From contig JAFXQI010000042.1 in NCBI GenBank assembly GCA_017527155.1, positions 67,600-131,599 of the forward strand: DNA of 64,000 bases. Direction: 5' to 3'. The stretch is from Kiritimatiellia bacterium. Lineage in GTDB: Bacteria; Verrucomicrobiota; Kiritimatiellia; CAIQIC01; Lenti-01. The translations under genes were made by a program, and so were the position numbers. This document shows positions 17,281-63,061 of this stretch, in pieces. The notes beneath the pieces were generated by a model, which saw nothing but the letters and a program-made list of their open reading frames with translations, had not been told where the DNA came from and did no database searches. Position 1 is the first letter of the stretch. Each line of letters starts with the position of its first letter.

Positions 17281-17385
17281 GGTATGCCTCGTTTCTGTTG
17301 AATCGGGAAACAATTCCACGCATTGTGCGCGAACGGAAGGAAATGGCCAGCACAAAATGACATGCGAAGCCTGGCCGCAGCCGGC

Positions 17386-18255
17386 CTACAGTCCGGGAGG
17401 CAATCCCGGCCCGGGCGGCAGGAACCCCGTCAGCACCTCTGTCCTCAATGCCTCCAGCTTCGGCGGCAGGTCGCGCGCCTGCAGGAAATCCACCAGCTCG
17501 CGGCGGGCGTTTTCCAGCATTACTTCGTCGGGCGGCTTCCCTCCGGCGCCCCCCGGACGCGGCAGGCGCCGCAGGCCCAGCGCGTCGTTCACGTGCGATT
17601 GCAGGCGGGTGAAATTCCAGTGCGCCCGCATCAGGCGCGAGAGGCGGCGTTTCGCCGCCGCGTATTGCGCCTGCAACACCGGGGGAACCGCTGCGGAAGC
17701 CTCCTCGCCGGGCAGCAACCATTCCAGCGGAAGCCGTTCGTCCAGGGCCAGAAGGGCGCGGAGGCGGACGGCGAGGCGCATGTAGCGCATGAGGGTCGAG
17801 TAGTTCATCCCGATGCGGTTGTCGGCCAGCCAGCCCCGGACGCCGCGGCCACGGCCCCGGATGCGTTTTGCGCCCGAAGGAGAGATATCGTAGAGGTTGC
17901 TGCGGTCGAGCGTCGGCGCCAGGTCCGCCAGGCGCGACCCGATCCGCAGGCGCACCGCGAGCGTGCGGGGCCGTACCGCCGCGTCGTCGGCGAACTCCTC
18001 CGGCGTCGGCGTCCCGCGCAGCGACGGCGAGGGCGGCCGCGGCACACGGAGACGGGTCCGGCGGCGCAGCTCGGAGAGGATGGCCTGTCCGCTGTCGGCC
18101 AGCCAGCTGCCGAGGGCGGCCGCCGAGAGCGCGGCGATCCCCGCGACGGCGACGGGCAGGACCACGGGCAGGGCAAGAGGCAGGGCGTAGGCGCGGGCGA
18201 CGTCGCCGGCAATCCCGGCGGCCTCGCGGAGGGTGTATTTGACCGTGTTGTTCAT
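17386..18255 (-). CDS. Hypothetical membrane-anchored protein, paralog family copy 2
   Basis: Start [23 protein letters not shown] (M61 of ORF 17386..18435). About 70 % identity to copies 1 and 3. The stop lies 105 nt upstream of dapA. Confidence 0.55.
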   Translation of the reverse strand: MNNTVKYTLREAAGIAGDVARAYALPLALPVVLPVAVAGIAALSAAALGSWLADSGQAILSELRRRTRLRVPRPPSPSLRGTPTPEEFADDAAVRPRTLAVRLRIGSRLADLAPTLDRSNLYDISPSGAKRIRGRGRGVRGWLADNRIGMNYSTLMRYMRLAVRLRALLALDERLPLEWLLPGEEASAAVPPVLQAQYAAAKRRLSRLMRAHWNFTRLQSHVNDALGLRRLPRPGGAGGKPPDEVMLENARRELVDFLQARDLPPKLEALRTEVLTGFLPPGPGLPPGL

Positions 18256-18318
18256 GGGCGGGAGCATGACGGTTGGGCTTGTGGAAGTCAAGTGTTTTTC
18301 CTGTTTCCAAAAGTGGCA
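18256..18318 (-). promoter_or_regulatory. Conserved upstream element of the paralog family, copy 2
   Basis: Gene orientation reads ...CACTTTTGGAAACAGGAAAAACACTTGACT-TCCACAAGCCCAACCGT-CATGCT-CCCGCCC-ATG. Spacing is the same as in copies 1 and 3. Confidence 0.35.
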
Positions 18319-18449
18319 GCGGTCCCGGGGAGTGAGGAGTGAATGGGAGGGGAAGAGGGGACTCTGGCGGTGAGGGCGGGGATGACGATGGAAGGGGGTG
18401 TTCCGCGGCGGGCGGGGCGGGCTGGACTTTTGCACGGGGGGGTGGCAAG

Positions 18450-20510
18450 ATGCGGCGCATGAAACACGGGCATTTTTCGAGTTTGGGCACGCGGATCCTC
18501 GCGGCGGCCGCGCTGGCGGCGGCGCTTCGGGGCGCCGCGCCGGCGGTGGCGCGGGCGCAGGAGGCGGAGGGCGGGGCGGTCCCGTCGGTGCAGTTCAATT
18601 TCGAGCAGGCGGACATCCGGCTCGTCACGAAGCTGGTGGGGCAGTGGACCGGGCGGACCATCATCGTGCCGGAAGGGGTGCAGGGCAAGCTGACGATCCT
18701 GACGCGCGGGGCGGTCCCCGCGGACGAGGTGTGGCCGCTGTACCTGCGGGCGCTGGAGGCGGCCGGGTACGCGGTGCGCGACGAGGGGGTGGCATGGCGC
18801 GTCGCGGCGCTGCCGGGCGCGGAGGCTCCGGTGACGGCGGGCGGCGCGGGGGACGGCGCCGAGGGCGGGCTGGTCACGGAAATCGTGCGGCTGAAGCACG
18901 TGGGGGCCGCGGACGTGAAGAAGGTGTTCGAGGGCATGGTGCGCGGCGGACGCGAGGGGGCACTGGAGGCGTTCGTGCCGGGCAACCACCTGCTGGTGAC
19001 GGGGACGGCCACGGAAGTGGCGCGCATCAAGTCGCTGGCGGAGCAGCTGGACCAGCCGGGGGCCGGCAGCGCGGTGGAGGTGGTCAAGCTGCAGAACGCG
19101 TCGGCGGAGGACGTGGCGGAGCAGCTGCGGGCGACGTTCGGGGCGTCGGACAGCGCGGCGTCGCGGGTCCAGAAGCACATGGCGCAGGTGACGGCCGGCG
19201 CGGGGGCGGGTCCGGCGGAGTTCTCGGTCGTGGCGGTGCCGCAGGCGAACAGCCTGGTGCTGGTGGGGCTGCCGGTGCAGATCGCGGACATGAAGCGCAT
19301 CCTCGAGAAGATGGATGTGGAGAACGCGGACGGCTTCGGGCGGCTGCGGGCGATTTTCCTGCAATACCTGTCGGCGGAGGAGGCGGCGAAGAGCCTCAAC
19401 GCGCTGCTGGGCAAGTCGGCGGAGGCGGAGCCGGGGCGGCGGTCGATCGCGATCGAGCCGAGCGTGGCGAACAACGCGCTGCTGGTGGACGCGCGGGGCA
19501 AGGATTTCGATTACGTGAAACGGCTGGTGGAGCAGCTGGACCAGGTTCCGCAGCAGGTGCTGGTGGAGGTGCTGATCGCGGAGGTGGACTTGGAGAAAGG
19601 CCTCGACCTGGGCGTGGAGTGGTTCGGCATCGAGCAGCCGGACGGGAGCGGCACGGGCGGCTTCGGGCGCACGCGCTACGGCGAGAGCGATTCGATGATG
19701 CAGCTGCTCGGCGAGGGCAAGTTCCCGCAGGGGCTGGCGGCGGGCGTGCTGAGCGGGACGTTCACGGCGCCCGACGGCACGGTCTACAACCAGATGCCGT
19801 TCTACCTGCGCGCGGTCGCCGGCGACAAGGACATCAAGATCCTTTCCAACATCCCGCTCTGGGCGCAGAACAACCTCGAAGCGAGCGTGAGCGTGGGGGA
19901 GAACATCCCGATCCTGAAGTCGTCGGTGGAGGGCTCCGGCAGCGACCGGGACTACATCCAGAACATCGAGCGGCGCGACGTCGGCATCACGCTGACCCTG
20001 ACGCCGCACGTGAACCCGAACCGGGAAATCCAGCTCGACCTCAACCCGTGCATCGAGACCGTGGTGGCGTCCGCCTCCGGCGACGCCGCGGCGGCGTACA
20101 CCCCGACCATCTCCCGGCGCGAAGTCAAGACGACCATCACCGTTCCCGACCGCAAGACCGTGGTCATCAGCGGCCTCATCCGCGAGGACACGAGCCGCAT
20201 CGAGAGCAAGGTGCCGATCCTGGGCGACATCCCGCTGCTGGGGTGGCTGTTCCGGTCGTCGAGCGACGTGAACAAGCGGACGAACCTGCTGATCTTCGTG
20301 ACCCCGCGCATCGTGACCGACGCCGCCGAAGCCGAAGCCGAGCGCGCGCGCCTCGAAGGCTCCGCCACGCTGCGCAACGCCGTCGACGACATCCAGCAGC
20401 CCTCGCCCGAGGCGGAAATCGCCGACATGGAAGCGCGGGACAAGGCGGCCCGCCGCAAGGCCGCCGCCGAGCGCAAGGCCGCGAAGCGCGCCGCGGATGG
20501 GGAGCCGTGA
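18450..20510 (+). CDS. gspD: Type II secretion system secretin GspD
   Basis: Start MRRMKHGHF (M38 of ORF 18339..20510) is followed by a signal peptide. N0/N1-type domains precede the secretin C-domain (VPILGDIPLLGWLFRSSSDVNKRTNLLIFVTPRIV). Confidence 0.85.
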   Translation: MRRMKHGHFSSLGTRILAAAALAAALRGAAPAVARAQEAEGGAVPSVQFNFEQADIRLVTKLVGQWTGRTIIVPEGVQGKLTILTRGAVPADEVWPLYLRALEAAGYAVRDEGVAWRVAALPGAEAPVTAGGAGDGAEGGLVTEIVRLKHVGAADVKKVFEGMVRGGREGALEAFVPGNHLLVTGTATEVARIKSLAEQLDQPGAGSAVEVVKLQNASAEDVAEQLRATFGASDSAASRVQKHMAQVTAGAGAGPAEFSVVAVPQANSLVLVGLPVQIADMKRILEKMDVENADGFGRLRAIFLQYLSAEEAAKSLNALLGKSAEAEPGRRSIAIEPSVANNALLVDARGKDFDYVKRLVEQLDQVPQQVLVEVLIAEVDLEKGLDLGVEWFGIEQPDGSGTGGFGRTRYGESDSMMQLLGEGKFPQGLAAGVLSGTFTAPDGTVYNQMPFYLRAVAGDKDIKILSNIPLWAQNNLEASVSVGENIPILKSSVEGSGSDRDYIQNIERRDVGITLTLTPHVNPNREIQLDLNPCIETVVASASGDAAAAYTPTISRREVKTTITVPDRKTVVISGLIREDTSRIESKVPILGDIPLLGWLFRSSSDVNKRTNLLIFVTPRIVTDAAEAEAERARLEGSATLRNAVDDIQQPSPEAEIADMEARDKAARRKAAAERKAAKRAADGEP

Positions 20511-22060
20511 GCGCGGCCGCCGCCAGCGAAGGCCTTCCGCGCGTCGAGCGCATCGAGGAGGGGTGGCTCGATCCGGCGCTGCTGGAGAGCGTGCCCGTCG
20601 AGTGGGTGCGGAGGCAGGGGATCCTCCCGGTGCGGCGCGACGGGGCGCTGTGGCTGCTCGCCGCCGACGCCTCCAACGTCCAGGCCTACGAAGACCTCTC
20701 CCTCCTGCTCGGGGCCGACGGCATCTGGGCCACCGCGCCCGCCGACGAAATCCGCCGCGCCGCCGACGCCTGCTACTTCCGCCGCGCCGGCGTCGCCGCC
20801 CCCGCCGCCGACGCCGCCCCCTCCGGCACCCCGCCCCCGCTCCCGGCGCCGCAGAGCCGCGCCGACGACCTCCTCGCGGGCGGTGCCGACGCGCCCGTCG
20901 CGCGGTACGTCAACTCCGTGCTGATCGAAGCGGTCAAGCGCGGCGCCTCCGACGTCCACGTCGAGCCCTTCGAGAGCGGTCTGGCGATCCGCTACCGCAT
21001 CGACGGCCTCCTCTACTCCCAGCCCCCGCCGCCGCCCGCGATGGCGGCGCCGCTGGTCGCGCGCCTCAAGGTGATGGCGAGCCTGGACCTCGCCGAGCGG
21101 CGCCTGCCCCAGGACGGCGTGGCGCGGGTGCGCGTCGGCGAGCGCGAGATCGACATCCGCGTCTCGTGCGTGCCGGTCGCCGAAGGCGAACGCGTGGTCC
21201 TGCGCCTCCTGCACCGCGAGAGCATCCGCTACGCGCTGGGCGACCTCGGGATGGCGACGGGGCTTCTCTCCGACTTCCGCCGCCTCCTGCGCGAACCGCA
21301 CGGGGTCATCCTGGTGACCGGCCCGACGGGCAGCGGCAAGACCACGACCCTCTACGCGGCGCTGCGCGAACTCGACACCGCGCACCTGAACGTGATGACC
21401 ATCGAAGACCCGATCGAGTACCAGCTCGAAGGCATCGGGCAAATCCAGACCCATCCGCAGATCGGCCTGACCTTCGCGAGCGGGCTGCGGCACATCCTGC
21501 GGCAGGACCCCGACGTCATCCTCGTCGGCGAGACCCGCGACATCGAGACGGCGGAAATCGCCATCCAGGCGTCGCTGACCGGGCACCTCGTCTTCACGAC
21601 CCTGCACACCAACGACGCCCCCGGCGCCGTCGTGCGCCTGACCGACATGGGGATTGCGCCCTACCTGCTCGCGTCGAGCGTCCGGGCCGTGCTGGCGCAG
21701 CGGCTGGTGCGGCGGCTGTGCCCGCACTGCCGGAGGCGGGTGGCGCTGGGGGCGGAAGAAGCGGCGCGGCTCGGCGTCGCGGGGCGCGCGGGCGCGGAGA
21801 TTTGGGAGGCGAACGCCGAAGGCTGTCCGCAGTGCCTCGGCGGCTACCGCGGCCGCACGGGCATCCACGAACTGCTGCTGGCGACGCCGGAACTGGCGGA
21901 AGCGGTACGCACGGGGGCGCCGCTGGCGGAGCTGCGGGGGATCGCGGCGCGGGGCGGCTTCACCGACATGCTCGCGGACGGCGCGGAAAAGGTGCTGCGC
22001 GGGGAGACGTCGGTGGCGGAAGTGCTGCGCGCGGTGGGTTCCCGCGAAGCGGGAGCGTGA
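20507..22060 (+). CDS. gspE: Type II secretion system ATPase GspE
   Basis: GTG start overlaps the gspD stop (GTGA). GspE features are VILVTGPTGSGKTTTLYA (Walker A), the Asp box, the His box and the CPHC...CPQC zinc tetracysteine motif. Confidence 0.85.
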   Translation: MSAAAASEGLPRVERIEEGWLDPALLESVPVEWVRRQGILPVRRDGALWLLAADASNVQAYEDLSLLLGADGIWATAPADEIRRAADACYFRRAGVAAPAADAAPSGTPPPLPAPQSRADDLLAGGADAPVARYVNSVLIEAVKRGASDVHVEPFESGLAIRYRIDGLLYSQPPPPPAMAAPLVARLKVMASLDLAERRLPQDGVARVRVGEREIDIRVSCVPVAEGERVVLRLLHRESIRYALGDLGMATGLLSDFRRLLREPHGVILVTGPTGSGKTTTLYAALRELDTAHLNVMTIEDPIEYQLEGIGQIQTHPQIGLTFASGLRHILRQDPDVILVGETRDIETAEIAIQASLTGHLVFTTLHTNDAPGAVVRLTDMGIAPYLLASSVRAVLAQRLVRRLCPHCRRRVALGAEEAARLGVAGRAGAEIWEANAEGCPQCLGGYRGRTGIHELLLATPELAEAVRTGAPLAELRGIAARGGFTDMLADGAEKVLRGETSVAEVLRAVGSREAGA

Positions 22061-22094
22061 GGGGAGCGGGAGTTGTGACGGAAGGAACGCGGCC

Positions 22095-23636
22095 ATGACC
22101 CTGCGCGAATTGGAAAAGCTTGTAGCCGACGGCGAGGGCGAAACCGTCGAATTCAAGGAGACGACCGGACAGCGCGGCGACGCCTGCCGGACCCTGTGCG
22201 CTTTCCTGAACGGAAAGGGCGGGACCGTCGTTTTCGGTGTTTCCCGCAAAGGGGTGTTGCAGGGGCAGGCCGTTTCCGACGCCACGAAGCGCGATTTGTT
22301 CGAGGTTTTCGACCGGTTCGAACCGGCGGCCGACATTGCGACCGAGTGGGTCCGCGTGGACACGATCCGCCAAGCCATCGTCTGCCGCGTGGAGCGCGGC
22401 AACATGCGCCCCTATCTCCACGACGGGAAACCATACCGGCGGGTCCAGTCCTCCACGACGGTCATGTCGCAGGAGGAATACGAGCGGATGCTTTCCGAAC
22501 GCGGCGGATTCAGGAGCGATTGGGACATGCAGCCCGCCCAGCACCTCTCCATGGAGGACCTCAATCTGGATGAAGTCGCGAAAACCGCCCGCATGGCCAT
22601 CGCCGCAGGGCGACTGGCTTCCAACGCCGACACGACCAATCCCTCCACGCTCCTGCGGAAGTTCCGCGTCATGCGCGACGGTCGTCTTCTCAACGCCGCC
22701 GCCGTCCTGTTCGGCACCCCCGACATGTTTTATCCCCAATGCCAAATCAAGATGGCGCGTTTCAAGGGGAGCGGCCGGAACGAATTCGGCGACGAACGTC
22801 GCGAAAGCGGGAACGTCTTCGCCCTCATGGACGCCGCCATGCAGTTCTGCTTCAAGCACTTGAACCTGTCCGGGAAAGTGGAGGGATTTCTCCGTGAGGA
22901 GCGTCTCGAATTGCCGCCGGAGGCCCTGCGCGAGGCCATCCTGAACGCTCTCGCCCACCGCCAGTACTCCCGCACCGCCACTGTTTCCCTGGCGATTTAC
23001 GACGACCGCGTGGAAATCACCAGCCCCGGCGGCTTGCCGCCGGGCAAGACCGTCGGCACCCTGATGGAGGAACACGAATCCGAACCCCGCAACACGCTCG
23101 TCGCCCAAGTGATGTATCTCCGAAAAGCCATCGAGATGTGGGGCCGGGGTTTCTCGCTCATGGCCACGGAATGCGCACGCTACGCCGTTCCCGCGCCGCT
23201 GGTGGCGGAAACCCCGGACGGTTTCGTGAAGGTCACCTTCCAACGCCCCGCTTCTGGCACCCCGGTGGGCCCGGAAGTTGGCACAACAGGCGGGAAATTT
23301 GGCACAACACCCCCGGAAGTTGACACAACAGGCGGAAAAGCTGGCACAACACCCCACGAGCCCGACCCGTTGCTTTCCAAAATTCAGTGGACCCTGGATA
23401 CCTGTTCCCCCGTTCTCCGAAAGAATGTGCGCCACAATGCCGAACAGGTGCTCCTAGAGATTGCCCGAGACCCCGTCGTGACCATCAAGGAGATTGCAGG
23501 CAAGACATCCCTCTCCCGGACAACGGTCAACAACATTCAGACACTGTTGAGGAATTTCGGCATCCTCTACCGGATCGGGGGGCATTTCGGCGGACGCTGG
23601 CTCGTGGTTTGGAAAGGCACTTCCAAAACTCCCTGA
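22095..23636 (+). CDS. AlbA_2 (divergent AAA / Schlafen-like) plus HATPase_c_4 plus C-terminal winged-HTH protein (so-called RecG-like putative transcriptional regulator family)
   Basis: Start MTLRELEKLVADGEGETVEFKETTGQRGDACRTLCAFLNGKGGTVVFGV (M148 of ORF 21654..23636). The HATPase_c_4 signature ILNALAHRQYS...DDRVEITSPGGLP is present. GC is about 60 % against roughly 72 % in the flanks. An internal in-frame 42-bp x2 repeat is listed separately. Confidence 0.65.
   Translation: MTLRELEKLVADGEGETVEFKETTGQRGDACRTLCAFLNGKGGTVVFGVSRKGVLQGQAVSDATKRDLFEVFDRFEPAADIATEWVRVDTIRQAIVCRVERGNMRPYLHDGKPYRRVQSSTTVMSQEEYERMLSERGGFRSDWDMQPAQHLSMEDLNLDEVAKTARMAIAAGRLASNADTTNPSTLLRKFRVMRDGRLLNAAAVLFGTPDMFYPQCQIKMARFKGSGRNEFGDERRESGNVFALMDAAMQFCFKHLNLSGKVEGFLREERLELPPEALREAILNALAHRQYSRTATVSLAIYDDRVEITSPGGLPPGKTVGTLMEEHESEPRNTLVAQVMYLRKAIEMWGRGFSLMATECARYAVPAPLVAETPDGFVKVTFQRPASGTPVGPEVGTTGGKFGTTPPEVDTTGGKAGTTPHEPDPLLSKIQWTLDTCSPVLRKNVRHNAEQVLLEIARDPVVTIKEIAGKTSLSRTTVNNIQTLLRNFGILYRIGGHFGGRWLVVWKGTSKTP
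23261..23344 (+). repeat. In-frame tandem repeat (4 x 21 bp, equivalently 2 x 42 bp) inside the AlbA_2/HATPase_c_4 gene
   Basis: The units are gttggcacaacaggcgggaaa / tttggcacaacacccccggaa / gttgacacaacaggcggaaaa / gctggcacaacaccccacgag. They encode EVGTTGGKFGTTPP-EVDTTGGKAGTTPH in the linker before the C-terminal wHTH. Confidence 0.5.
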
Positions 23637-23647
23637 GGGGCCGCGGC

Positions 23648-24607
23648 GTGAAGATCCTGACCAATCTCGCGTTCGTGCAGAGCCGGGTGTGGAGCGCGGC
23701 GGCGGAGAGCATCTGCGCGGACGGCGAATCGCCGGACGAAATGGGCGCGCTGCGGCAGGCGTGGAGGTTGTGGAGGCGGAGAAGGGGTGCGGACGCGGTG
23801 GTGACGATGGGGGCGCGGGCGTCGCTGGCGTACGGGCTGCTTTGCGCGGCGACGGGCGTCGCGTCGCGGCAGGTGATGATGGAGTATTTCCTCGACATCC
23901 CGCGGCCGGAGTCGTGGCGCTGGCGGTTCAAGCACGCGCTGTACCGGATCGTCGCGCGGCGGGCGCTGGGGATTCTCGTCAACAGCAAGGGGGAAATCGA
24001 GTCCACGGCGTCGCGGTTCGGGCTGGAGAGGGCAAAGGTGCTGTTCGTGCCGATGTATTCGACGATCGAGAAGCCCGAATGCGTCGAGGACAACGAGGGC
24101 ATCGTCGTGTCGGTCGGGCGGACTTTGCGCGACAACGCGACGCTCCTCGCCGCGGCGCGGCGGTTCCGCGCGCCGCTGGTGCTGGTGGTGGGGAAGGACG
24201 ACAAGCTGCCGGAGCCGCTGCCGTCCAACGTCGAGCTGCTGCGCGAGATTCCGCTGGAAGAAGCCCACCGGCTGATGCGGCGCGCCGCGGTCGTGGTCAT
24301 TCCGCTGCTGCCGGCGGAGCGCTCCACGGGGCAGGTCGTCGTGCTGGAAGCGATGGCGCTCGGCAAGCCGGTGGTCGCGACGGAACTGGCGGGTACGGTG
24401 GACCTCATCGCGAGCGGCGTGGACGGGGTGTTGGTCCCGGCGGGCGACGCCGAGGCGCTGGCGTCCGCCGTCAACCACCTCCTGGAAACGCCTGACGAAG
24501 CCCGCGCCATCGGCCGCGCGGCGTACCGGCGGATCGCGGCGACGGGGTCGGCGGACCACCGCGGACGGGCGATGCTGGAGGCGGTCGCTGCGCTCGCCGC
24601 GCGCTGA
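23648..24607 (+). CDS. Glycosyltransferase family 4 (GT-B), with an apparently short N-terminal domain
   Basis: GTG start VKILTNLAFV (res 88 of ORF 23387..24607). The C-terminal GT4 signature is present: VGKDDKLPEP...LLREIPLEEAHRLMRRAAVVVIPLLPAERSTGQVVVLEAMALGKPVVAT (the E-x7-E region). An alternative ATG lies at 23741. Confidence 0.5.
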   Translation: MKILTNLAFVQSRVWSAAAESICADGESPDEMGALRQAWRLWRRRRGADAVVTMGARASLAYGLLCAATGVASRQVMMEYFLDIPRPESWRWRFKHALYRIVARRALGILVNSKGEIESTASRFGLERAKVLFVPMYSTIEKPECVEDNEGIVVSVGRTLRDNATLLAAARRFRAPLVLVVGKDDKLPEPLPSNVELLREIPLEEAHRLMRRAAVVVIPLLPAERSTGQVVVLEAMALGKPVVATELAGTVDLIASGVDGVLVPAGDAEALASAVNHLLETPDEARAIGRAAYRRIAATGSADHRGRAMLEAVAALAAR

Positions 24608-24701
24608 CCTCCGCGGGGAGGGGTGGCGGCGGGGGGTTGTCCGGCACACTTTTTCCTTGCATGGGGCGGGGTTGGAGGGTAGGGTGGGTGGTGTTCGAAG
24701 C

Positions 24702-24783
24702 GCCGGAGTGGCGGAATGGCAGACGCAGCAGACTCAAAATCTGCCGCCCTCTGGGCGTAAGGGTTCAAGTCCCTTCTCCGGTA
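24702..24783 (+). tRNA. tRNA-Leu (anticodon CAA)
   Basis: Hand fold: acceptor GCCGGAG/CTCCGGT, anticodon stem gcaga/tctgc with loop cTCAAaa, a long variable arm cgccctctgggcgt (class II), T-arm aaggg-ttcaagt-ccctt. CCA is not encoded. Confidence 0.8.
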
Positions 24784-24798
24784 CACTTCGGGCGACGC

Positions 24799-24889
24799 GG
24801 AGAGGTGCCAGAGTGGCCTATCGGGCACGCCTGGAGAGCGTGAGTGCTCCAAAAGGGCACCGTGGGTTCAAATCCCACCCTCTCCGCCA
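24799..24889 (+). tRNA. tRNA-Ser (anticodon GGA)
   Basis: Acceptor GGAGAGG/CCTCTCC, anticodon stem cacgc/gcgtg with loop cTGGAga, a long variable arm, T-arm gtggg-ttcaaat-cccac, discriminator G, CCA encoded. Confidence 0.8.
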
Positions 24890-25004
24890 TTTTTGTGCCC
24901 CGGTGCCGGGGGCGGAACCGGGGAGCGGGGGGTTCGCTTTTGGGCTTCAGTTCCGGGACGGGAGGGGGTAAGGTGGTCGGGATGTTTTCCAGCGAGGAAC
25001 CGAG

Positions 25005-26384
25005 ATGAAGAGTTTCAAGAGTCCGTTGAAGTGGTGGCTCGTGGCGGGCGTGCTGTTCGCCAACCTGGCCGCGGGCGTGCGCCTGTATTCCCAGGAGACC
25101 GCCGGTGCCGTCGCCAAGGCCGCCGCCGAGGAGAAGTCCCCGTACGAGATGTACGCGCTCTTCTCCACCGTGGTCGAGCAGATCCGCGCGCAGTACGTCG
25201 ACGCCGACAAGTGCGGCTACGAGGACCTCATCCACAGCGCCCTCCACGGCATGCTGCAGTCCCTCGACCCGCACAGCTCCTTCATGGACGAGGAGGAATT
25301 CGCTTCCATGAAGGAGGACACCTCCGGCAAGTTCGGCGGCCTCGGGATCACCATCGGCATCAAGAACGCCATCCTCACCGTCATCGCCCCCATGGAAGGC
25401 ACCCCCGCCTTCCGCGCCGGCCTGCTCGGCGGCGACAAGATCGTCGAGATCGAGGACGAATCCACCGACGGCCTCGCCCTGGAAGAGGCCGTCAAGAAGC
25501 TCCGCGGCGACCCCGGGACCCAGGTCAAGATCAAGGTCTTCCGGCCCGGCACGCACCTGTTCAAGACGTTCACCCTCACGCGCGCCATCATCAACGTCCC
25601 GAGCGTGAAGGACACGCGCGTGCTCGACGGCGGCATCGGCTACGTGCGGATGCTCCAGTTCGGCGAGGACACGGCGGCCGACCTGCAGGACGCGCTGGAC
25701 GAGCTGGAAGCGCAGGGCGTCAAGGCGCTGGTGCTGGACCTGCGGAGCAATCCGGGCGGGCTGCTGGCGTCGGCGGTGGAGGTGGCGCAGAAGTTCCTGC
25801 GGAAGGGTGACCTGATCGTGTTCACCCGCACGCGCGACGGGCGGATCGACCGCTCGTACTCGGCGCGCCCGCGGAAAGCCTTCCCGAAAGTCCCCATGGC
25901 CATCCTCATCAACGGCTACAGCGCCAGCGCCTCGGAAATCGTCGCCGGCGCCCTCCAGGACCACCACCGCGCGGTGCTGGTCGGCGAGAAGAGCTTCGGC
26001 AAGGGCTCGGTCCAGAGCGTGCTGCCGCTGGACGACGGCAAGGTCGCGATCCGCCTGACGACCGCCAAGTACTACACGCCCAGCGAACGCGTCATCCACG
26101 AGAACGGCATCGAGCCGGACATCGTGGTCCCCATGACCGCCGAGAACTGGCGCAACGTCGTCATCGCCCGCAACAAGGCCGAGCAGCTGACGGGCGACGA
26201 GGAACTCGCCGCGACCGACGAAGGCTGGGAGAGCGGGGACGGCGAGGTCGTCGAGGACGGCGCGGAGCTGCTCCCGGACGGGGAAGAGGCGTCCGTCGGC
26301 AAGGACTCCGGCGACGATACCGACCCGCAGCTCGACCGCGCCTGCGACGTCCTGCGCGGGATGCTCGCGTTGCAGGGGCGCTGA
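25005..26384 (+). CDS. ctpA: Carboxyl-terminal processing protease (S41 family)
   Basis: Signal/TM N-terminus, a PDZ domain, and S41 catalytic motifs GYSASASEIVAGALQD and GEKSFGKGSVQ. Confidence 0.8.
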   Translation: MKSFKSPLKWWLVAGVLFANLAAGVRLYSQETAGAVAKAAAEEKSPYEMYALFSTVVEQIRAQYVDADKCGYEDLIHSALHGMLQSLDPHSSFMDEEEFASMKEDTSGKFGGLGITIGIKNAILTVIAPMEGTPAFRAGLLGGDKIVEIEDESTDGLALEEAVKKLRGDPGTQVKIKVFRPGTHLFKTFTLTRAIINVPSVKDTRVLDGGIGYVRMLQFGEDTAADLQDALDELEAQGVKALVLDLRSNPGGLLASAVEVAQKFLRKGDLIVFTRTRDGRIDRSYSARPRKAFPKVPMAILINGYSASASEIVAGALQDHHRAVLVGEKSFGKGSVQSVLPLDDGKVAIRLTTAKYYTPSERVIHENGIEPDIVVPMTAENWRNVVIARNKAEQLTGDEELAATDEGWESGDGEVVEDGAELLPDGEEASVGKDSGDDTDPQLDRACDVLRGMLALQGR

Positions 26385-40640: not shown

Positions 40641-41241
40641 AAGAATAAGGTGAAGACACAATGGACTGCGGCCACATTAATTCTGAACCTGCCCCAAGAA
40701 ACACTGTGGTTGTTTCCGAACAGGAAAACTCCGAGGTTCTGGCCGAATGGCATCCCCCTCCATCGCTTGCACGTTCCAGTGCCCGGCGGCGAGGGGACTC
40801 GCCGTCCGTCCCACACAGCTTTGCACGAACGAAAAACTTCTTCACCTGACAACTCCATTGGACCCATTGGACAAAGCCAATGCGGAATGGTTGCCAAGGC
40901 CATGGAGTCCGGACAAAAAAAAGGTCCGTGCCAGGCTTGGGGGGGGGCACCTGGCACGGAGGAAACAGGCAGGGGCCCCGGGGGGGGGGAGGAGGGGCAT
41001 CTTCCTGCCTGCTTGTTGCGTGTTTAGCAACAAGATGTTCAAAATCGTTTGGGCGTTGAAAGAACGGTCTGTTTCTTGCGAAACTGGGGTGCACTATACT
41101 CTTTGCGTCTGGGGTGTCAAGAGGAAAAAGAAAAAATTTTCCGGTAGGTGGAACCGGGCCCGCCGGGAATGAAAAACTCCGCCGTGCGGACGGCGGAGCG
41201 CGAGGGGCCGGTGGAACGGCCCGGAGGGCAGGGGCGGGGGG

Positions 41242-41877
41242 TCACTCCTCGACGAGTTCCTCGGCGATTTCGCGGGCGGCGTCGATGGCCATGTCGCGGC
41301 GCTCGGCGGAATCGAAGTGGCGCTCGGCGTCCTGGCCGTCGGCCCAGGCGATGCGGATGTCGTCCACGCCGATGCAGGAGAAGATGGCGCGGATGGCGGG
41401 GGTGAGACCGTCGGCGGGATCGTTTTCCTTGTAGACGGAGTCGGAGGAGACGAGAAGGACGACGGTACGGATGTGGTGGGTGGGGATGGGACCGTCGGGC
41501 CCCATGCGGTAGAGCTTGCCGGGGACGACGATCTGGTCGAGCCAGGCCTTGAGGATCGCGGGCATGGAGTTGAGCCAGACGGGCATGGTCAGGACGACGA
41601 CGTCGGCGTCGATCATGGCCTGCGCGTTGTTGTTGGAGTAGTTGGCGGCGTTTTCCTCGGCCTTGGACGGGATGTAGGCGGGGTCGATGACGGGGCGCCA
41701 GAAGTAGTTGAGCGCGTCGGCGCTGACGAAGGGCGGCTTGTTCTGGTAGAGGTCCACGTTCTCGACGACCACGTCGGGATCCTTCTCCATCAGGGCGGAG
41801 AAGAACTCCAGGGCCAGCTTCTTGGAAACGGAGGTCTCCGAGGGCTTCGGGTTGGCAATCAGGTGCAATACGTTCAT
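41242..41877 (-). CDS. azoR: FMN-dependent NADH-azoreductase / flavodoxin-like NAD(P)H quinone oxidoreductase
   Basis: Start MNVLHLIANPKPSETSVSKKLALEFFSAL (M36 of ORF 41242..41982) on a flavodoxin-like fold of 211 aa. Confidence 0.65.
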   Translation of the reverse strand: MNVLHLIANPKPSETSVSKKLALEFFSALMEKDPDVVVENVDLYQNKPPFVSADALNYFWRPVIDPAYIPSKAEENAANYSNNNAQAMIDADVVVLTMPVWLNSMPAILKAWLDQIVVPGKLYRMGPDGPIPTHHIRTVVLLVSSDSVYKENDPADGLTPAIRAIFSCIGVDDIRIAWADGQDAERHFDSAERRDMAIDAAREIAEELVEE

Positions 41878-42068
41878 CTGGAAAAGTCTCCTTTCAAGGG
41901 GGGTGGAAGAAACGTTTTCCGTTTGTGCCACAGTCGGACGGCAAAGGCAATGCCAAAATGGGGAAAACGGCGCGCCGCGCAATCAGGCTTGAACCCGTGG
42001 CACGCGGCGCCTATAGTCTCCGCGTTTCCACCCACGGCCCGACGGCCGACGAAAGGAAGGATGTATTC

Positions 42069-47710: not shown

Positions 47711-48571
47711 TCACGGAAGAACCGTACCGCTCGCCCATCCGGCCAGCGCCTCCCGGCGCAGTGCTTCCAGTTTCGGGGGCAGGTCGCCGGCCTGCACGAA
47801 ATCCGCCAGCTCGCGGCGGGTGTTCTCCGCCAAGGTCTCGTCTAGGGGCTTGCCTCCGCCGCGTCCCGGACGCGGCAGGCGCCGCACCCCCAGCGCCCCG
47901 TCCACATGCGATTGCAGGCGGCTGAAGTTCCAGTGTGCCCTGAGCAGGCGCGCGAGGCGGCGTCGGGCCGCCGCGCAATGCGCCTGCAACGCCTCCGGCA
48001 CGGCCGCGGAAGCCTCCGCGCCCGGCAGCAACCATTCCAGCGGCAGCCGTTCGTCCAGACCCAGTAGCGCGCGGAGGCGGACGGCGAGACGCATGTAGCG
48101 CATGAGGGTCGAGTAGTTCATTCCGACGCGGTTGTCCTCCAGCCAGCCCCGGACGCCGCGGCCGCGGCCGCGGATGCGCTTTGCGCCCGTCGGCGAGATG
48201 TCGTAGTGGTTGCCGCGGTCGAGCGTCGGTGCCAGGTCCGCCAAGCGCGACCCGATCCGCAGGCGCACCGTCAGGGTCCGCGGGCGCACCGCCGCATCGG
48301 AGGCGAATTCCTCCGGCGTCGGCGTCCCGCGCAGGGAGGGCGATGGCGGGCGCGGCGCCCTCAGACGCGTCCGGCGGCGCAATTCGGAGAGGATGGCGCG
48401 TCCGGTGGCTCCGGCAATCCAGCTGCCGAGGGCCGCCGCCGAGAGGGCCGCGACACCGGCGAGGGCGGCGGGGACGAGGACGGGGAGGGCCAGGGAGCCG
48501 ACGTAGAACCGGGCGGTGTCGCCGGCGATGCCGGCAGCCTCCCGGAGAGCGTATTTGCAGGTGTTGTTCAT
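47711..48571 (-). CDS. Hypothetical membrane-anchored protein, paralog family copy 3
   Basis: Start [23 protein letters not shown] (M28 of ORF 47711..48652). About 70 % identity to copies 1 and 2. The stop lies 135 nt upstream of deoA. Confidence 0.55.
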   Translation of the reverse strand: MNNTCKYALREAAGIAGDTARFYVGSLALPVLVPAALAGVAALSAAALGSWIAGATGRAILSELRRRTRLRAPRPPSPSLRGTPTPEEFASDAAVRPRTLTVRLRIGSRLADLAPTLDRGNHYDISPTGAKRIRGRGRGVRGWLEDNRVGMNYSTLMRYMRLAVRLRALLGLDERLPLEWLLPGAEASAAVPEALQAHCAAARRRLARLLRAHWNFSRLQSHVDGALGVRRLPRPGRGGGKPLDETLAENTRRELADFVQAGDLPPKLEALRREALAGWASGTVLP

Positions 48572-48632
48572 GGGCGGGAGCTTGGGGAAGGGACGGTGGA
48601 AAGTCAAGGATTTTTCCTGTGTGCAAACGTGA
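48572..48632 (-). promoter_or_regulatory. Conserved upstream element of the paralog family, copy 3
   Basis: Gene orientation reads CACGTTTGCACACAGGAAAAATCCTTGACT-TTCCACCGTCCCTTCCC-CAAGCT-CCCGCCC-ATG. Confidence 0.35.
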
Positions 48633-48742
48633 AAAAGGGGACAGCATGGCAACCTTGAACCGATCCCTTTTCCCGGCCTGCACCCGGTCAGGGCGGACGA
48701 AGGGAAAGAGGAACGGAAGGGGTGGAAGGGGCGGCGGCGGGG

Positions 48743-55685: not shown

Positions 55686-58600
55686 CTAGGGGGTGGGGCA
55701 GGTGGCGCGGAGGTGGTAGAAGGTGGCGGGGGTGGAATTGGTGTCGAAGTACATGGAGACGGGGGGGGTGTTGGTGATTGCGAACTGGGAGGTGGATGCG
55801 GGCAGGAGAAGGTTGGTGGTGAAGGAGAGCTGGTAGGTGACGCCGGTGGCGGAGGGCCAGGAGAGGAGGGTGCCGGTGGAGTCGGCTTCGGCGTCGAGAC
55901 GGAAGAAGGACGCGCCGTCGTTGGGGTCGGTGCCGAGGTGGTATTCTTCGAGGTTGGTGAAGCCGTCGGCGTCGGGGTCGAGGTTGGGGTTGCAGGCGGT
56001 GGCGCCGCCGAAGTGGGCGATGGCCCACCAGTCGGGGATGCCGTCGGAGTCGGTGTCGAGGCGGCGGATGGCGTTGGTGAAGGTGACGGAGGCGGTGCCG
56101 AGGGTGTTGGAGGCGATGAAGGTGAAGACGTTGGTGGCGGGATAGCTGGAGTTGATTTCGAGATAGCCGGTGCCGACGTCGAAGGAGTAGGTGTATTCGT
56201 CGGCGACGGTGTGCGCGGCGTCGAGGGTGATCAGGGGGTATTCGCCGGAGACGTATTGGTAGAGGTTCAGGATGGGCGCGGCGTCGAGGTCGACGAGAAG
56301 GTCGCCGAGGGGCTGCCAGGCGGGGGCGTTGCCGGCGGTGACGGTGACGTCCTGTTCGATGCTTCCGGCGGCGTTTTCGGCGCGGAAGGTGAAGGTGTAG
56401 GCCCCGGCGGCGGGGGCTTCGAAGATGAAGATGTCTTCGGCGATGGCATAGGCGGAGTCGTCGATTTCGTCGCCGGTGCGGGAGTCGAAGGTCCCGACGA
56501 GGGTGACGGCGGGGGACGGAAAGCCGGTGACCTGGCTCTTGAGGTCGATGGTGATTTCGCCGCCGACGCCGGTGGTGTAGGCGGTTTCGCCGGTCCAGGC
56601 GGGGGCGGTCTGGTTGGCGTCGAAGAAGTCGAGGATCTTCTTCATGAGGGTGTTGCGGCGGGTGGCGTCGGTGATGGTCTCGAAGGGGAAGCCGGCGACG
56701 ACGGTGCGGCAGACGGAGTTGGAGCAGGCGATGATGGCGCCGTTGGTGCCGGAGGTGCCGCCGTAGGTGGCGGCGACGAAGGCTTCGCCGACGGGGGCGA
56801 GGGTGTCGGGGTAGTTGGCGGCGTAGATGTCGGGGAGGTTGTTGGTGTAGTTGAAGTCGGCGCGGGTGCCGGAGAGGAAGGTGCCGCTCTTGCCGCTGAC
56901 GATGGCGCTGCCGCCGTCGTCGGCGACGTAGGTGCAGTGGAGGTAGTTGGTCATGAAGGCCTTGTCGGAGTCGGAGCCCTTGGCGGAGAGGTCCCAGCCG
57001 ATTTCGGAGCCGGAGACGAAGAGGGCGCCGCCGTTGTCGAGGAAGGCGGCAAGGCGCTGCTGTTCGTCGTAGGTGAAGGTTTCGTCGGCGGTGGATTCTT
57101 CTCCGAGGCACCAGACGACCTTGGGGTAGCGGGCGAGGTCGGAGGAGGTGACGCGGGAGGCGTCCATGTAGTCGAAGGAGCGTCCGGCGGCGGCGATGGC
57201 GTTGCCGTGTTCCTTGACGTAGTCGAAGGAGTTGATCATGCGCGGGCGGACGAGGGTGACGTTGCCCTTGAGGTTGTTGGCGAAGTAGCGGGTCGGGGAC
57301 TGGGCGCCGTCGTTGCGCTTGAAGCCGTCGACGACGAGGACGTCGGCGGTGGAGCCGTCGGAGGAGAGCCCGGCGCCGGCGACGGGCGAGGAGAGGGATT
57401 CGCCGCCGAGGTTGGTGGCGCAGACGCGGAAATAATATGGGTTCCCGGCGGGGAGGTCGGTGAATTTGTGGGCGTATTCGTCGGCGGGGGAGGTGATGGC
57501 GACGGGGTTGCCGAAGGCGTAGCCGTTGGTGGAGACGTAGATGACGAAGCCGGTGTGGGGGTCGGACATGCGGTTGGTGCCGTGGGGCATCTGCCAGGAG
57601 ACGGTGACGCAGTTGGGGCCGGAGTTGGTGGCGGCGACGGCGACGGGGGCGTCGGGGGCGCAGATTTCGCGGACGGTGAGGGTGGAGTCGGTGGCGTAGC
57701 GGGTGACGAAGTGGCGCAGGATGCCGCGCAGGGCGGAGCGGGCGAGCCATTCGCGGCCGGTGGGGGACTTCATGATGGCGGCGTCGAGTTCCTTGTCGTG
57801 GAAGGCGACTTCGGCGATGGTGTTGTCCATCTTGGTCCAGATGGAGCCGCCGTAGATTTCGCCGTAGTGGGAGCCGAGGGTGCGCGCGCAGTCCTGCTGC
57901 CAGGCGGTGGCGACGAGGCCGTGGGCGTGGGCGGCGGTCATGTTGCTGACGATGGAGTTGGCGATGCAGCGGGCGAGGTTGGTCTGTCCGGCGAGGTAGG
58001 AGCCGGTGACGCGGGTGTCGTAGAGGCCCATGCAACCGCGCTGGGAGCCGGAGGCGTTGGAGTGGAAGGAGAGGTACAGGCGGCGCCAGCGCGGCCAGTC
58101 GTTGGTGCGGCACATGGCGTAGGCCATGCGGTTGGGGGCGGAGACGTTGTCGTCCTGGTCGTAGCTGGCGGTGGAGTTGTAGATGGAGTCGGGGAGGCCC
58201 TGGGAGTCGAGGACCATGCGCTGGGTCCAGTAGCGGGCGCCTTCGAGTTCGCGCTCGTAGCCGGATTTGCCGGCGGTGCCGCGCGAGATGTCGCCCATGC
58301 CGTTGCCGAAGCGGACGGCGTCGGCGATGACGGTGCCGTCGTCGAAGCCGGGGGCGAAGTTGGAGATGTTGACGCAGCCGTTGGTGCCGGCGTCGAACCA
58401 GTAGTTGCCGAGCCAGACCCATCCGTTGCCGACCTGGCGGTGGTCGACGCGGACGTCGGTGACGCCGCCGGCGTGGTGGACACGGTAGAGCTGCGGGACG
58501 CGGTCGGAGCCGGGACGCGCCCAGACGTAGACGGGGTATTCGCCGGCCGCGGGAAGGGACGGGCGGAAGGAGGCCCAGGCGGTGGTGCCGGTGGCGCAGA

Positions 58601-61600
58601 TGTTGGCCCAGCGGTAGCCGACTTCGCCGGCCTTGCCGTGGTAGTAGTCGGTCTGGGACGTGTTGCCCCAGTTGCCGCCGTAGGTGACGCGCGAGGCGAG
58701 GGAGGCGGCGGTGTCGACGTTGTCGATGACGACTTCGTTGGTCTGGTAGCCGAGCGGGCGCATGGGGACGACGGTGGCGCCGGCCTTCCACGCCTGCAGG
58801 GCGAAGTAGTTGAGCTGGTCGATCGTCCCCATGTCCTCGACCATGCCGTAGGTGATGCCGCGTCCGGCCGCCCAGGCGTTGGTCTGGCCGTTGGCGGTGA
58901 AGCCGTGGCCCGCGGCGACGTAGAGGACGATGCCGGAAAGCGCCCCGTGCGGCTGCTCGGCGGTGGAGGTGCCGAAGGGGGACCAGGAGTCGGCGTCGGG
59001 TTCCTCGGGGGCCGTGGAGGTGCCCTCGATGGTCAGGCGGCGCCACTGGATGGACCCCGCCGTGCCGGAGTTGCTGGCGCAGAAGATGACGCCGTGCTCG
59101 CCGCCGTCGAGCGCGGGGGAGAAGGAGAAGGTGTTGGTGTAGGTCTGCTTCAGGGGCGTGGCGCAGACGCCGACGGGGGAGAAGCTGGCGCCGCCGTTGG
59201 TGGAGGCGTAGAGGGTGGCCTGGCGGGTGTCCGCGGCGGAGGCGGGGCGGAAGAGGGTGGTCACCTGCGTGACGACGCCGGCGAAGGCCGGGGTGGTGGC
59301 CCAGGAATTGGTGGGTTTGTAGAGGTAGACGTAGCCGGTGTCTCCGCTCGTCTCGTCCGTGGGCCGGACGTAGCAATTGCCGAGGTTCCACGCGTGGTTG
59401 TTGACGTTGGTTTCGCCGCTGTAGAGGGCGTCGTCGCACAAGGACCAGCCTTCGGGGACGGTGAAGTCCCATGTGGTCGATACGGGCGTGATTTCGGTGG
59501 AGGGTTCGTCGCCGCCGGTCTCCTCGGTGGTGGTGGCGGTGGTCTCGACCCAGACGGAGCGGGTGTTCTCGGTGAGGGCCTGGACGCGGATCCAATATGG
59601 GGTTTCGGGGGAGAGGCCTTCGATGGTGTCGGAGGGGGAGGTGACGGTCTTGGGATAGCCTTCGGGGCGGTTGGCGTCGCAGTAGCGGCCGGTGGTGCCG
59701 GAGAAGGAGAGTTTGATGTTCTTGAGGCCCGCGCCGCGGAGGGAGCCGGAGGTGGAGTCGGCGTGGCGTTCGGCGTAGGGGGCGACGATCTTCACGGCGA
59801 GGGTTTCGCCGTCGAGATAGGGGAGGTCGTAGGACTGTGCGGACCAGTCTTCGTCGTCGGTGGAGGCGGCGCGGCACTCGCCGAGGAAGTTCCAGGGGCC
59901 TTGGTCGAGGCGGTAGTAGACGCGGAGGACGGAGCAGGTGATGCCGACGGTGGATTTGGCGGCATTCCACGGGCAGTTGGAGAAGGAGAGGTTCGCGCTG
60001 GTCGCCCCGTAGAGCGGGAAATCCCACGATTGGAGAGCCTGTCCGGGATGGCCGGCCAGGTAGTGTCCCGCATATTTGGCCGTGGAGCAGTAGCCGGGGC
60101 CTGCGCCGAGGTTGCTGGAGGTCGTGACGGTGCGGACGGTGCCGGTGTAGCACCAGGACTGGCCGGTGAGGAACTGGTTCGTCCCGAGGGAGGCCGACGG
60201 GCAGGTGGCGGTCCAGTTGGTGTAGGGGCCGCTGGCGACGTCGACCTGGTAGGCGGCGGCGCCAGGGGCGGCGGTCCAGGAGAGGGCGATGTTGGTGGCG
60301 GCGGGCTCGGCGGCGAGGCCGGAGGGTACCATGCCGGGGGTGACCGTCACGATGTCGGACCAGTTCGTGGAGGAGGCGTTGCGGACGCGCAGGCTGACGG
60401 GCGAGGAGAGGCCGGTGAGGTTGGTCGCGCAGGTGTCGGCGAGGGGGGTTCCGGTGGCGGCGACCCAGTTGGTGGTCGTGCCGGTGGCAACGAAGGAGTG
60501 GAGCAGGACCGTCGTGGGCTCCCCGGTCGTCACGTTTTCGAAGCGGAAAACGGTTCCGCCGGGATTGGAGATGGAACAGGCCGTGGCGTAGTCGAGGATG
60601 GCCGAGACGTTGGAGCAGGCGTAGGTGCCGACCGTGGTGAAGCCGGTGCTCCCGGCGGGGGCGGCCAGGACGCGGAGTTTGCGGCCTTCGTAGTTCGACG
60701 CGGCGGCGGCGCGAACGCGGACGGCCAGCTGCGTGACAGTGCCGGAAACGGGCGGCGTCTGGATGTAGGAATTGGAGTACGTCAGGTAAACGTAGCCGGG
60801 GTCCTGGTAGTTGGTGATGCCGGGGCGGAGTTCCAGCTTGCCGCGGAGCCCCCAGGCGCTGCCGGCCACGTTGACGGTGGTGGGCGTGGTCGTGGTGACG
60901 TTGTTCGTCACCCAGCCCTCGGCGGAGGAGAACGAATTGGAGAAGACGAGCGGCACGTCCTCCCACCAGCCGTCCGCGAGCCCTTCGGGCGTGGGGGCGG
61001 ACTGGACGACGTAGCCGGCGGGATCCACGACGGCGGGGGTCCAGGAGAAGAGCGCGGAGGAGGCGCCGATGCCCGTGGCGCGGGCGTCGGGGGCGCTGGC
61101 GCCGGAGCCGCCGCCGGAGCCGCCGCCGGAGTAGGTGTCGAACTTCTCGCCGAGGAGTTCCCACAGCTCCTCCGCTTCCGGCGCGTGGGTCAGGCACCAG
61201 ATGCCGACGCCGCCGAGGCCCTTGGACTTCGCGTAGTCGTACTTGAGGCCGAGCGATTCCGCGTCGTCGTAGAAACACTGGTAGGCGTTGGTGCCGGACT
61301 TGTACGCGTAGTACGGGACGGACCCGTTCGAGTCCCATTGGCGCCCGTGGTTTTCGGCGGCGGCGACCGCGTTGGGGTATGTCACGGCGGCCGAGTAGGA
61401 CGAGCCGCAGGACTTCGAGCCGATGCTGGTGGTGGCGGACTTCCAGCGGCGGCCGTAGTAGGGCACCGCCAGCATGAGGTGGGCGGCGTTGGTCATCTTG
61501 TTGAGATAATAGCGGGTCGAATAGTCCACGCTGCACCAGGAGGATGCCCCCTGCCACTGTGCCGACGAATAGAGCGGCGCGACGGGCCCGGGCGTGGCGG

Positions 61601-62444: not shown

Positions 62445-62651
62445 GCTTTCGATTTTACCCCCACGCGCGCGCGGAGGAAAGCCGAAAAAGCGGGGAGGAA
62501 TGGAGCGGAGGGCATCCCGCTTTGTGCAAGGTGCAAGCCCGGAAGCGGAGAGGGAGGACGGGGGAAAACTCCGATTGGTCCGATGGCCCGGGATGCGGGA
62601 GAAACGCGCGAAGCCGGCGGTTCCAGCGGGGAATGGGGGGCTTCCTCTTTT

Positions 62652-62848: not shown

Positions 62849-63061
62849 TGGAAATGCCCGGAGGGACGATGGATGGAGGCCCCCCTGTTCCTTTGAGCGG
62901 TTCAAGAAACAGTACAGCTCCTGTTTCGCCTTCCAGACTGGTGGGGGCGAGCTCTCCGAGCGAGCCGTTCCTTGCGCCTCTGAGGCTCGCACGGAGTGCT
63001 CGCCCTGCCAGGCCCCTGTCACGGGGCGACCACGGTATTTCTCGACCCGCTCCAAACCGCG

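Follow-up and report, generated by a model that had tools for sequence, protein, structure and literature searches.

A foreign Schlafen gene in a variable slot of the gspD-gspE-GT4 block of a Kiritimatiellia bacterium

We analysed a 64,000-nucleotide stretch of a Kiritimatiellia genome (contig JAFXQI010000042.1, positions 67,600 to 131,599; hereafter the window, numbered from its first letter) in which a gene for a prokaryotic Schlafen protein stands between the type II secretion system (T2SS) genes gspD-gspE and the gene for a GT4 glycosyltransferase (hereafter GT4). The explanation that best accounts for the evidence taken together, and that we consider likely, is that a foreign Schlafen gene of the Schlatpase-HTH kind, in which a Schlafen (SLFN) domain and a GHKL-type ATPase are followed by a helix-turn-helix (HTH), occupies a variable slot in a native gspD-gspE-GT4 block and acts in phage defence as a tRNA nuclease (tRNase). 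The Schlafen gene was horizontally acquired, and the foreign stretch is limited to positions 22,095-23,636; GT4 is native and lies outside the insertion. Telling this one foreign gene apart from what is native (GT4, the tRNA genes and a layout without gspF) averts an annotation of the locus as a tRNA island that broke the T2SS.

One foreign gene in a native block

Gene calls were taken from a frame plot of the GC content at third codon positions (GC3), the sequence being ~69 % GC, and ~40 window genes were scanned against Pfam. The block and the borders of the slot are laid out as follows:

18450..20510, + strand: gspD secretin, first gene of the gspD-gspE-GT4 block (Pfam Secretin, Secretin_N, GspD N0)
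20507..22060, + strand: gspE ATPase, left border of the slot (Pfam T2SSE, 432 bits)
22061..22094, + strand: leader from gspE to the Schlafen gene, 34 nt, with GGAAGGAA just 5' of the ATG
22095..23636, + strand: the inserted gene, a 513-residue prokaryotic Schlafen of the order SLFN-GHKL-winged HTH (Pfam, composition, absence in relatives)
23637..23647, + strand: spacer of 11 nt, GGGGCCGCGGC, leading to the GT4 GTG; right edge of the insertion
23648..24607, + strand: GT4 glycosyltransferase, 319 residues, GTG start, right border of the slot (Glyco_trans_1_4, 77 bits)

With a GC of 0.620 and a GC3 of 0.77 the Schlafen gene ranks lowest of the ~40 window genes; gspD (GC3 0.95), gspE, GT4 (0.92) and ctpA range from 0.92 to 0.95. 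When the synonymous choices of each gene were scored, with simulation, against the usage pooled from the remaining genes, the Schlafen gene fell at a z of -12.3 and the next gene at -6.4, and 23 % of its codons ended in A or T as against 3-15 % elsewhere, whereas GT4 lay in the bulk (z -2.8, 8 % A/T-ending). The anomaly therefore covers one gene, not two. A reading made from the letters of the window without database searches (the sequence-only reading) had described a lower-GC Schlafen gene and a GT4 gene as together suggesting a small horizontally acquired insertion; this stands for the Schlafen gene, on its composition, its codon usage and its absence at the slot in close relatives, and falls for GT4, which is native-like at a GC3 of 0.92. 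Of the 1-kb bins of the window, the one poorest in GC (0.617) is 41,000-42,000, over a flavodoxin-like gene (41,242-41,982) and adjoining intergenic DNA; low GC alone is therefore not unique to 22-24 kb, and it is the codon-level analysis that singles out the Schlafen gene. Schlafen homologues at the slot in four independent assemblies have GC3 values of 0.72-0.76 beside neighbours of 0.91-0.95, and the nearest homologues outside the clade sit in contigs of 49-59 % GC.

Relatives, compared with the window as contigs or loci of metagenome-assembled genomes (MAGs) numbered L001-L121, exhibit the slot filled, empty and filled with something else. The order gspD-gspE-Schlafen-GT4 is kept in the contigs with the closest Schlafen homologues (L001, L002, L090, L120 and L003), the Schlafen identity being 96 % to L001 when the repeat gap described below is counted and 99 % without it, ~86-88 % to L002, ~86 % to L090 and L120, and ~73-74 % to L003, where a split M50-like/Sel1 gene stands in front of the Schlafen gene. 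The DNA of L002 is 84 % identical to the window over 18,415-24,605, which is exactly gspD through GT4, and has different flanks (mgtE and a lipid A acyltransferase gene upstream, enolase and no tRNA downstream). In L113-115, with a GT4 88 % identical to that of the window, the Schlafen gene is absent from the order gspD-gspE-GT4, which has a gap of 221 nt, and L116 (GT4 71 % identical) is arranged likewise with a gap of 35 nt. In L118/119 (GT4 ~91 %) the slot is taken by a low-GC HARE-HTH gene for an HrgA-like protein of 315 residues (L118:1363-2310; GC 0.55 and GC3 0.75 in a contig of 0.70 GC), which is 32-49 % identical to plasmid genes annotated as HrgA or HTH domain-containing protein. The edges of the insertion are sharply placed: the first ~20 nt of the leader, after the gspE stop, are found again in L113, a locus with no Schlafen gene, its last ~20 nt (GGAAGGAAxGCGGCC) are shared with L001, L002 and L090, and an identical 11-nt spacer precedes the GT4 GTG in L118, whose slot carries another gene. 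Since gspE and GT4 adjoin directly in loci lacking the Schlafen gene, and the edges are precise, the gap between gspE and GT4 is a variable slot with GT4 as its native right border. GT4 has a continuous series of Kiritimatiellia homologues, and the shortened N-domain noticed from its sequence is real as to length and nothing special, being the norm of a family with more than 100 homologues of 311-340 residues, source-named Kiritimatiellia or Opitutae.

An assembly chimera was considered and ruled out, as the order gspE-Schlafen-GT4 recurs in the independent assemblies L001, L002, L003, L090 and L120/121. Alternative foreign cargo at one locus has a parallel in the hrgA/hpyIIIR locus of Helicobacter pylori, where conserved genes flank alternative, compositionally foreign genes differing by strain. 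The likeness extends to the HrgA-like cargo of L118; the difference is that no methyltransferase partner is seen here, and that the organisms and the flanking genes are not the same. The HARE-HTH protein had no PADLOC match and no sequence match in the PDB, and PADLOC likewise returned nothing for the Sel1/M50-like protein of L003 or for the small open reading frames (ORFs) of L118.

Several smaller observations concern the slot and its borders in these relatives. The HARE-HTH protein of L118 contains, by eye, a PD...E.K-like motif (HPDLVGV ... FEMK). In L003 two ORFs (L003:1819-3074) of 52 and 366 residues separate gspE from the Schlafen gene, both matching Peptidase_M50 and the longer one also Sel1, with a GC3 of 0.84-0.85; the pair resembles a split or decayed M50 protease. 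A 15-bp perfect palindrome, TTCCAAYCATTGGAA, occurs in 5-6 copies in an AT-rich stretch directly upstream of GT4 in L113:6572-6691 (also in L114 and L115) and in L118:2325-2475 (also in L119), with an extra copy at L113:16011-16025. It is confined to relatives lacking the Schlafen gene, with no copy in the window even when 2 mismatches are allowed, and the array could be an operator array, an element of repetitive extragenic palindromic (REP) type or a recombination site. The gspE match in L090 (1528-2965) changes frame partway, with query residues 8-82 in one frame and 115-512 in another, owing to a frameshift or an assembly error.

The missing gspF and the tRNA pair

The start of gspE overlaps the stop of gspD by GTGA, as was read in the sequence, and the two genes are therefore translationally coupled. 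GspD passes its NCBIfam model (TIGR02517, 399.5 against a cut-off of 351), and the top match of GspE, TIGR02533 at 571.5, is under the equivalog cut-off of 630. That gspF would be expected to follow was correct: it stands directly after gspE in eight more distant Lentisphaerota/Kiritimatiellia MAG loci (L004-L010 and L014), whose GspE is 53-60 % identical to that of the window. A hidden Markov model of GspF built from nine sequences and run with --max against six-frame translations of the window and L001-3 found nothing better than an E-value of 2.4, hence neither gspF nor a remnant of it, and tblastn with Klebsiella GspF against the same sequences gave no match. The proposal that the insertion displaced or truncated the T2SS operon does not survive the comparison with relatives, because L113-115 and L116, which have no Schlafen gene, are already gspD-gspE-GT4 with no gspF after gspE; the adjacency of gspF was therefore lost before the insertion or independently of it. 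Nor are gspD and gspE decaying, at a ratio of nonsynonymous to synonymous substitution rates (dN/dS) of ~0.16.

No other T2SS part was matched among the window genes scanned against Pfam, and in the outgroups L004-L014 only gspD and gspE, of the window genes queried, have matches. The cluster in these outgroup MAGs seems to be gspD-gspE-gspF alone, with no pseudopilin-like ORF evident, and T2SS genes therefore seem to be dispersed across the phylum generally; in L004 and L009 the first ORF past gspF starts PhoU-like (by eye, from the first residues only). The clade of the window links gspD-gspE to a GT4 gene instead of gspF. This gspD-gspE-GT4 linkage is constant while both flanks change in every relative examined (L002, L113, L116 and L118), the differing flanks being dapA/hypothetical, mgtE/lipid A acyltransferase, OMP (outer membrane protein)/DUF1844 and ApbA, which suggests that selection keeps GT4 linked to the secretin-ATPase pair in this clade.

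Two tRNA genes, neighbours only and outside the feature, begin 95 nt downstream of GT4:

24702..24784, + strand: tRNA-Leu(CAA) (ARAGORN)
24799..24889, + strand: tRNA-Ser(GGA) (ARAGORN)

The sequence-only reading took this pair as a possible integration site, and a small island made of the AlbA_2 (Schlafen) gene and GT4, integrated at tRNA-Leu/tRNA-Ser and displacing or truncating the T2SS by removal of gspF, would agree with the foreign composition of the Schlafen gene, with the short distance to the tRNAs and with the presence of gspF after gspE in the eight outgroup loci and its absence from the window. We consider such an island very improbable. GT4 is native in composition and directly follows gspE in relatives that have neither the Schlafen gene nor gspF; no second copy of either tRNA 3' end (24-25 nt, up to 3 mismatches) is present in the 64-kb window; no integrase or transposase family was matched in the Pfam scan; both genes lie 5' of the two tRNAs, not 3'; and in L002 and L120 the same gspD-gspE-Schlafen-GT4 block is followed by enolase with no tRNA. 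Around the Schlafen insertion itself there are no mobility genes and no bracketing repeats, with low-identity chance repeats only. We also considered whether the neighbouring type II tRNAs (Leu, Ser) might be linked to a Schlafen tRNase, and ruled it out, since they do not accompany the block in L002 and L120, where enolase follows instead.

Architecture of the Schlafen protein

The features within the inserted gene, ending with a winged HTH (wHTH), are these:

22134..22466, + strand: SLFN_AlbA_2 nuclease-like domain, residues 14-124 (PF04326, 60.6 bits against a gathering threshold of 25.3)
22134-22157, + strand: Ex4ExK motif, E14-GETV-E19-F-K21, inside the SLFN_AlbA_2 domain
22980..23237, + strand: HATPase_c_4, a GHKL-type ATPase domain, residues 296-381 (PF13749, 72.4 bits against a threshold of 26)
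23271..23354, + strand: variable-number repeat of two 42-bp units encoding PEVGTTGGKFGTTP and PEVDTTGGKAGTTP, residues 393-420 (Tandem Repeats Finder, TRF)
23421..23606, + strand: C-terminal wHTH, approximately residues 443-504 (weak HTH_24; shape in the model)

Both domains that had been named from the translation, AlbA_2 and HATPase_c_4, were matched in the Pfam search of the 513-residue protein. E14-x4-E19-x-K21 fits the Schlafen nuclease motif Ex4(E/D)xK as defined by Perez Taboada et al. (Nat Microbiol 2026, PMC13056530). Across 42 homologues E14, E19 and K21 are invariant, as are E280, N284, H288, R289, D304, R305, P311, G312, G350, R351 and G352 of the GHKL part. The wHTH scores just under the cut-off of HTH_24 (20.4 against 21.9 bits), with weak Rrf2 and HTH_11 matches too. 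In the AlphaFold model (mean predicted local distance difference test, pLDDT, of 80.8), which has three folded parts and one disordered linker, the wHTH consists of three helices and a beta-hairpin in a winged-helix shape at a pLDDT of 85-93, and its Foldseek matches to MarR, PerR and PefI are weak (E 0.04-0.07). The N-terminal ~110 residues (pLDDT 86-93 over residues 1-110) match SLFN13, SLFN11, SLFN5, SLFN12, SLFN14 and the SAMD9 tRNase domain at a Foldseek probability of 1.0 with E-values of only ~1e-3, the SLFN13 N-domain (5yd0) superposing with a root-mean-square deviation (rmsd) of 2.9 A over 111 columns, and the middle part has weak matches to histidine-kinase CA domains (E 0.008-0.06). 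NCBIfam assigned no family to the protein, which is identical to MBR3583244.1 from a Kiritimatiellae MAG, named 'putative DNA binding domain-containing protein' in GenBank.

Kuzmenko et al. (bioRxiv 10.64898/2026.05.29.728809) named the SLFN-GHKL pair 'Schlatpase' and reported an HTH in more than 90 % of Schlatpase proteins. Under the name pSlfn-HisKinase-HTH, the three-part architecture accounts for 19.2 % of 5,930 prokaryotic Schlafens (pSlfn) and ranks second in frequency among pSlfn architectures (PMC13056530). By its sequence the window protein reads as typical of the Schlatpase-HTH prokaryotic Schlafens and as unexceptional within a family that is very common; it shares with that family PF04326, PF13749, a putative C-terminal HTH, the retained Ex4(E/D)xK motif and the form of a single-gene unit. 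It differs in standing between a T2SS ATPase gene and GT4, in no recognisable defence island, and in having a linker with a variable 14-residue repeat.

The best full-length structural match by Foldseek is DIP2311 of Corynebacterium diphtheriae (PDB 3LMM, a structural-genomics protein; E 2.6e-22), which has the same architecture and domain order and is also the only sequence match in the PDB (E 8e-6 over the GHKL region), yet identity is 15-17 % and the global template-modelling score ~0.4, the relative placement of the domains being different. PADLOC matched residues 39-314 to the SLFN-GHKL part of its Argonaute-associated (pAgo) models, and in the SLFN-pAgo of Runella zeae (RzAgo) this shared module is the best available mechanistic template, as ATP-driven oligomerisation there assembles the SLFN tRNase; the window protein, unlike it, has just a wHTH after the module. 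Mammalian SLFN11/12/13/14 and the SAMD9 tRNase carry the same acidic/lysine motif, and the ~110 N-terminal residues superpose on their catalytic lobe at an rmsd of 2.8-4.6 A, although in the mammalian proteins the N-domain is two-lobed and a helicase or other modules make up the C-terminal part, and identity is 15-24 % (E ~1e-3).

The protein evolves unevenly along its length. The in-frame tandem repeat seen in the letters is real, but it had been counted as 4 x 21 bp, a fit of 71 %, and is better described as 42 bp x 2.0 with a 90 % match (TRF, 23,270-23,355). The repeat is a 14-residue unit in the disordered linker that joins the GHKL domain to the wHTH, with a pLDDT below 50 at residues 389-422, and alleles at least 99 % identical differ in carrying 2, 3 or 4 units (513, 527 and 541 residues). 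Compared with L002, identity is 91-98 % in the SLFN domain, the bridge and the GHKL domain, 57 % in the linker and 74 % in the wHTH, which makes the wHTH the fastest-evolving folded part; the pattern resembles that of a conserved effector with a variable sensor described for pSlfn5.

Defence, regulation and the history of the slot

By analogy with characterised relatives, the protein probably defends against phage as a tRNase regulated by ATP. In the sequence of events that we propose, assembly of the SLFN tRNase would depend on ATP, the wHTH would serve as a nucleic-acid sensor or tether controlling the enzyme, and phage infection would lead to tRNA cleavage and a halt of translation, a defence of abortive-infection type. 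Two other pSlfn types defend via tRNA cleavage, with the Ex4(E/D)xK motif conserved, and 69.6 % of pSlfn genes lie near defence genes (PMC13056530). The expectation that proteins of this architecture would be common in defence contexts holds for the family elsewhere: homologues 52-58 % identical to the window protein lie in GmrSD/PDDEXK or HSP70/kinase islands in lower-GC contigs, and more remote relatives occur in phage-like contigs and on plasmids. Consensus scans for promoters and terminators over 17,300-25,100 found no site of either kind from gspD to the tRNAs; since nothing resembling a terminator parts the Schlafen gene from the gsp operon, read-through from that operon probably accounts for expression of the gene.

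Several observations weigh against this account. The scans used a simple consensus that may not suit the phylum. No known defence gene was found within 10 kb on either side in the Pfam scan, the neighbours over that distance being folK, dapB, dapA, gspDE, GT4, the tRNAs, ctpA, tsaD, rlmN and a TraB/GumN-family gene; PADLOC found nothing for GT4, and no other defence-related family was matched among the ~40 window genes scanned. The HisKinase-type pSlfns tested in E. coli were not protective against the phage panel used (PMC13056530), so that defence by this architecture is as yet unproven. Through substantial divergence the gene has been kept at one locus, which is less typical of defence cargo and could reflect domestication. 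A GspE tree rooted with the gspF-bearing outgroups interleaves loci with the Schlafen gene (L003, window/L001, L002/L120) with loci lacking it (L116, L113, L118), a patchy pattern that needs about three losses, several gains or recombination, and the GspE and GT4 trees conflict on the placing of L118 and L002.

Domestication gives rise to an alternative in which the protein is a wHTH DNA-binding regulator of the gspDE/GT4 operon or of envelope functions, with SLFN and GHKL as ligand- or ATP-sensing modules. Close spacing (34 nt from gspE, 11 nt to GT4) free of any site resembling a terminator, a position held to ~73 % identity under purifying selection, the lack of defence neighbours and the GenBank name of the protein all agree with such a regulator, as does the 30.4 % of pSlfn genes that lie away from defence genes and may have non-immune roles (PMC13056530). 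We nevertheless regard it as unlikely, since sister lineages keep gspD-gspE-GT4 with no Schlafen gene or with the unrelated HrgA-like gene in its place, the Ex4ExK motif, needless for a pure regulator, is strictly conserved, and conservation among the folded domains is lowest in the wHTH, as would be expected of a sensor in an arms race; together these points weaken the regulator, and paralogous family members in defence-like islands count against it as well.

Returning to the foreign, probably defensive gene, its divergence indicates that the insertion is old, not recent, as it has co-diverged with gspE down to ~73 % identity. Schlafen identities to L002 and L003 (88 % and 73 %) mirror those of GspE (89 % and 73 %), and dN/dS is 0.13-0.20 for all four genes of the block, in the range of purifying selection (Schlafen gene 0.20 and gspE 0.17 against L002). 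Synonymous divergence (dS) between the window and L002 is 0.32 for the Schlafen gene, 0.45 for gspD, 0.50 for gspE and 0.99 for GT4, the Schlafen value being similar in magnitude to those of gspD and gspE. Read most simply, the gene was acquired once, long ago, and afterwards lost or replaced; recombination within the slot may have taken place as well.

This last idea can be taken further: in place of descent from one ancient insertion, related strains would repeatedly swap the Schlafen gene into and out of the slot, with homologous recombination acting in gspE and GT4 on either side, in the manner of a defence hotspot. The patchy distribution on the GspE tree and the existence of both empty and alternative-cargo states fit such swapping, as do the unequal dS values of the four genes (GT4 0.99 against Schlafen 0.32), and L118 groups with L002 by GspE (93.5 %) and with the window by GT4 (91.6 % against 82.5 %), a conflict that implies a recombination breakpoint within the slot. 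Divergence of the Schlafen gene nonetheless follows that of GspE closely (88/89 % and 73/73 %), as in vertical descent, and the sample is small, with nine loci of which one has a partial gene; repeated swapping is a possibility to which we give limited weight. Equally tentative is a wider hypothesis in which the junction of gspE and GT4 would be an unrecognised single-gene defence hotspot inside a secretion operon of a Kiritimatiellia clade, its cargoes exchanged by recombination in the flanking genes and expressed via read-through. The alternative immune cargoes might then be a Schlatpase-HTH protein or an HrgA-like HARE-HTH protein, some loci having a palindrome array and no cargo, and the variable 14-residue repeat of the linker might adjust, from strain to strain, the reach or the specificity of the wHTH sensor.

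Schlatpase-HTH is the commonest prokaryotic Schlafen architecture still lacking a demonstrated phenotype, with none on record for any member of the exact architecture. The locus provides a well-resolved case outside annotated defence islands, with the gene present, absent or replaced in different relatives and a linker that varies by strain, and it helps to ask whether the ~30 % of pSlfn genes counted as not defence-associated are domesticated or lie in hotspots that have gone unannotated.

Two further features of the window may be recorded. Three paralogues with 70-73 % protein identity and no Pfam family lie at 193-1104, 17386-18435 and 47711-48652, all on the - strand; one of them stands directly upstream of gspD on the opposite strand, also in L001, and a 47 % identical homologue is found downstream of GT4 in L118. 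At 55686-63578 (- strand) a single ORF of 2,630 residues has a coding-like composition, with a GC3 of 0.87.

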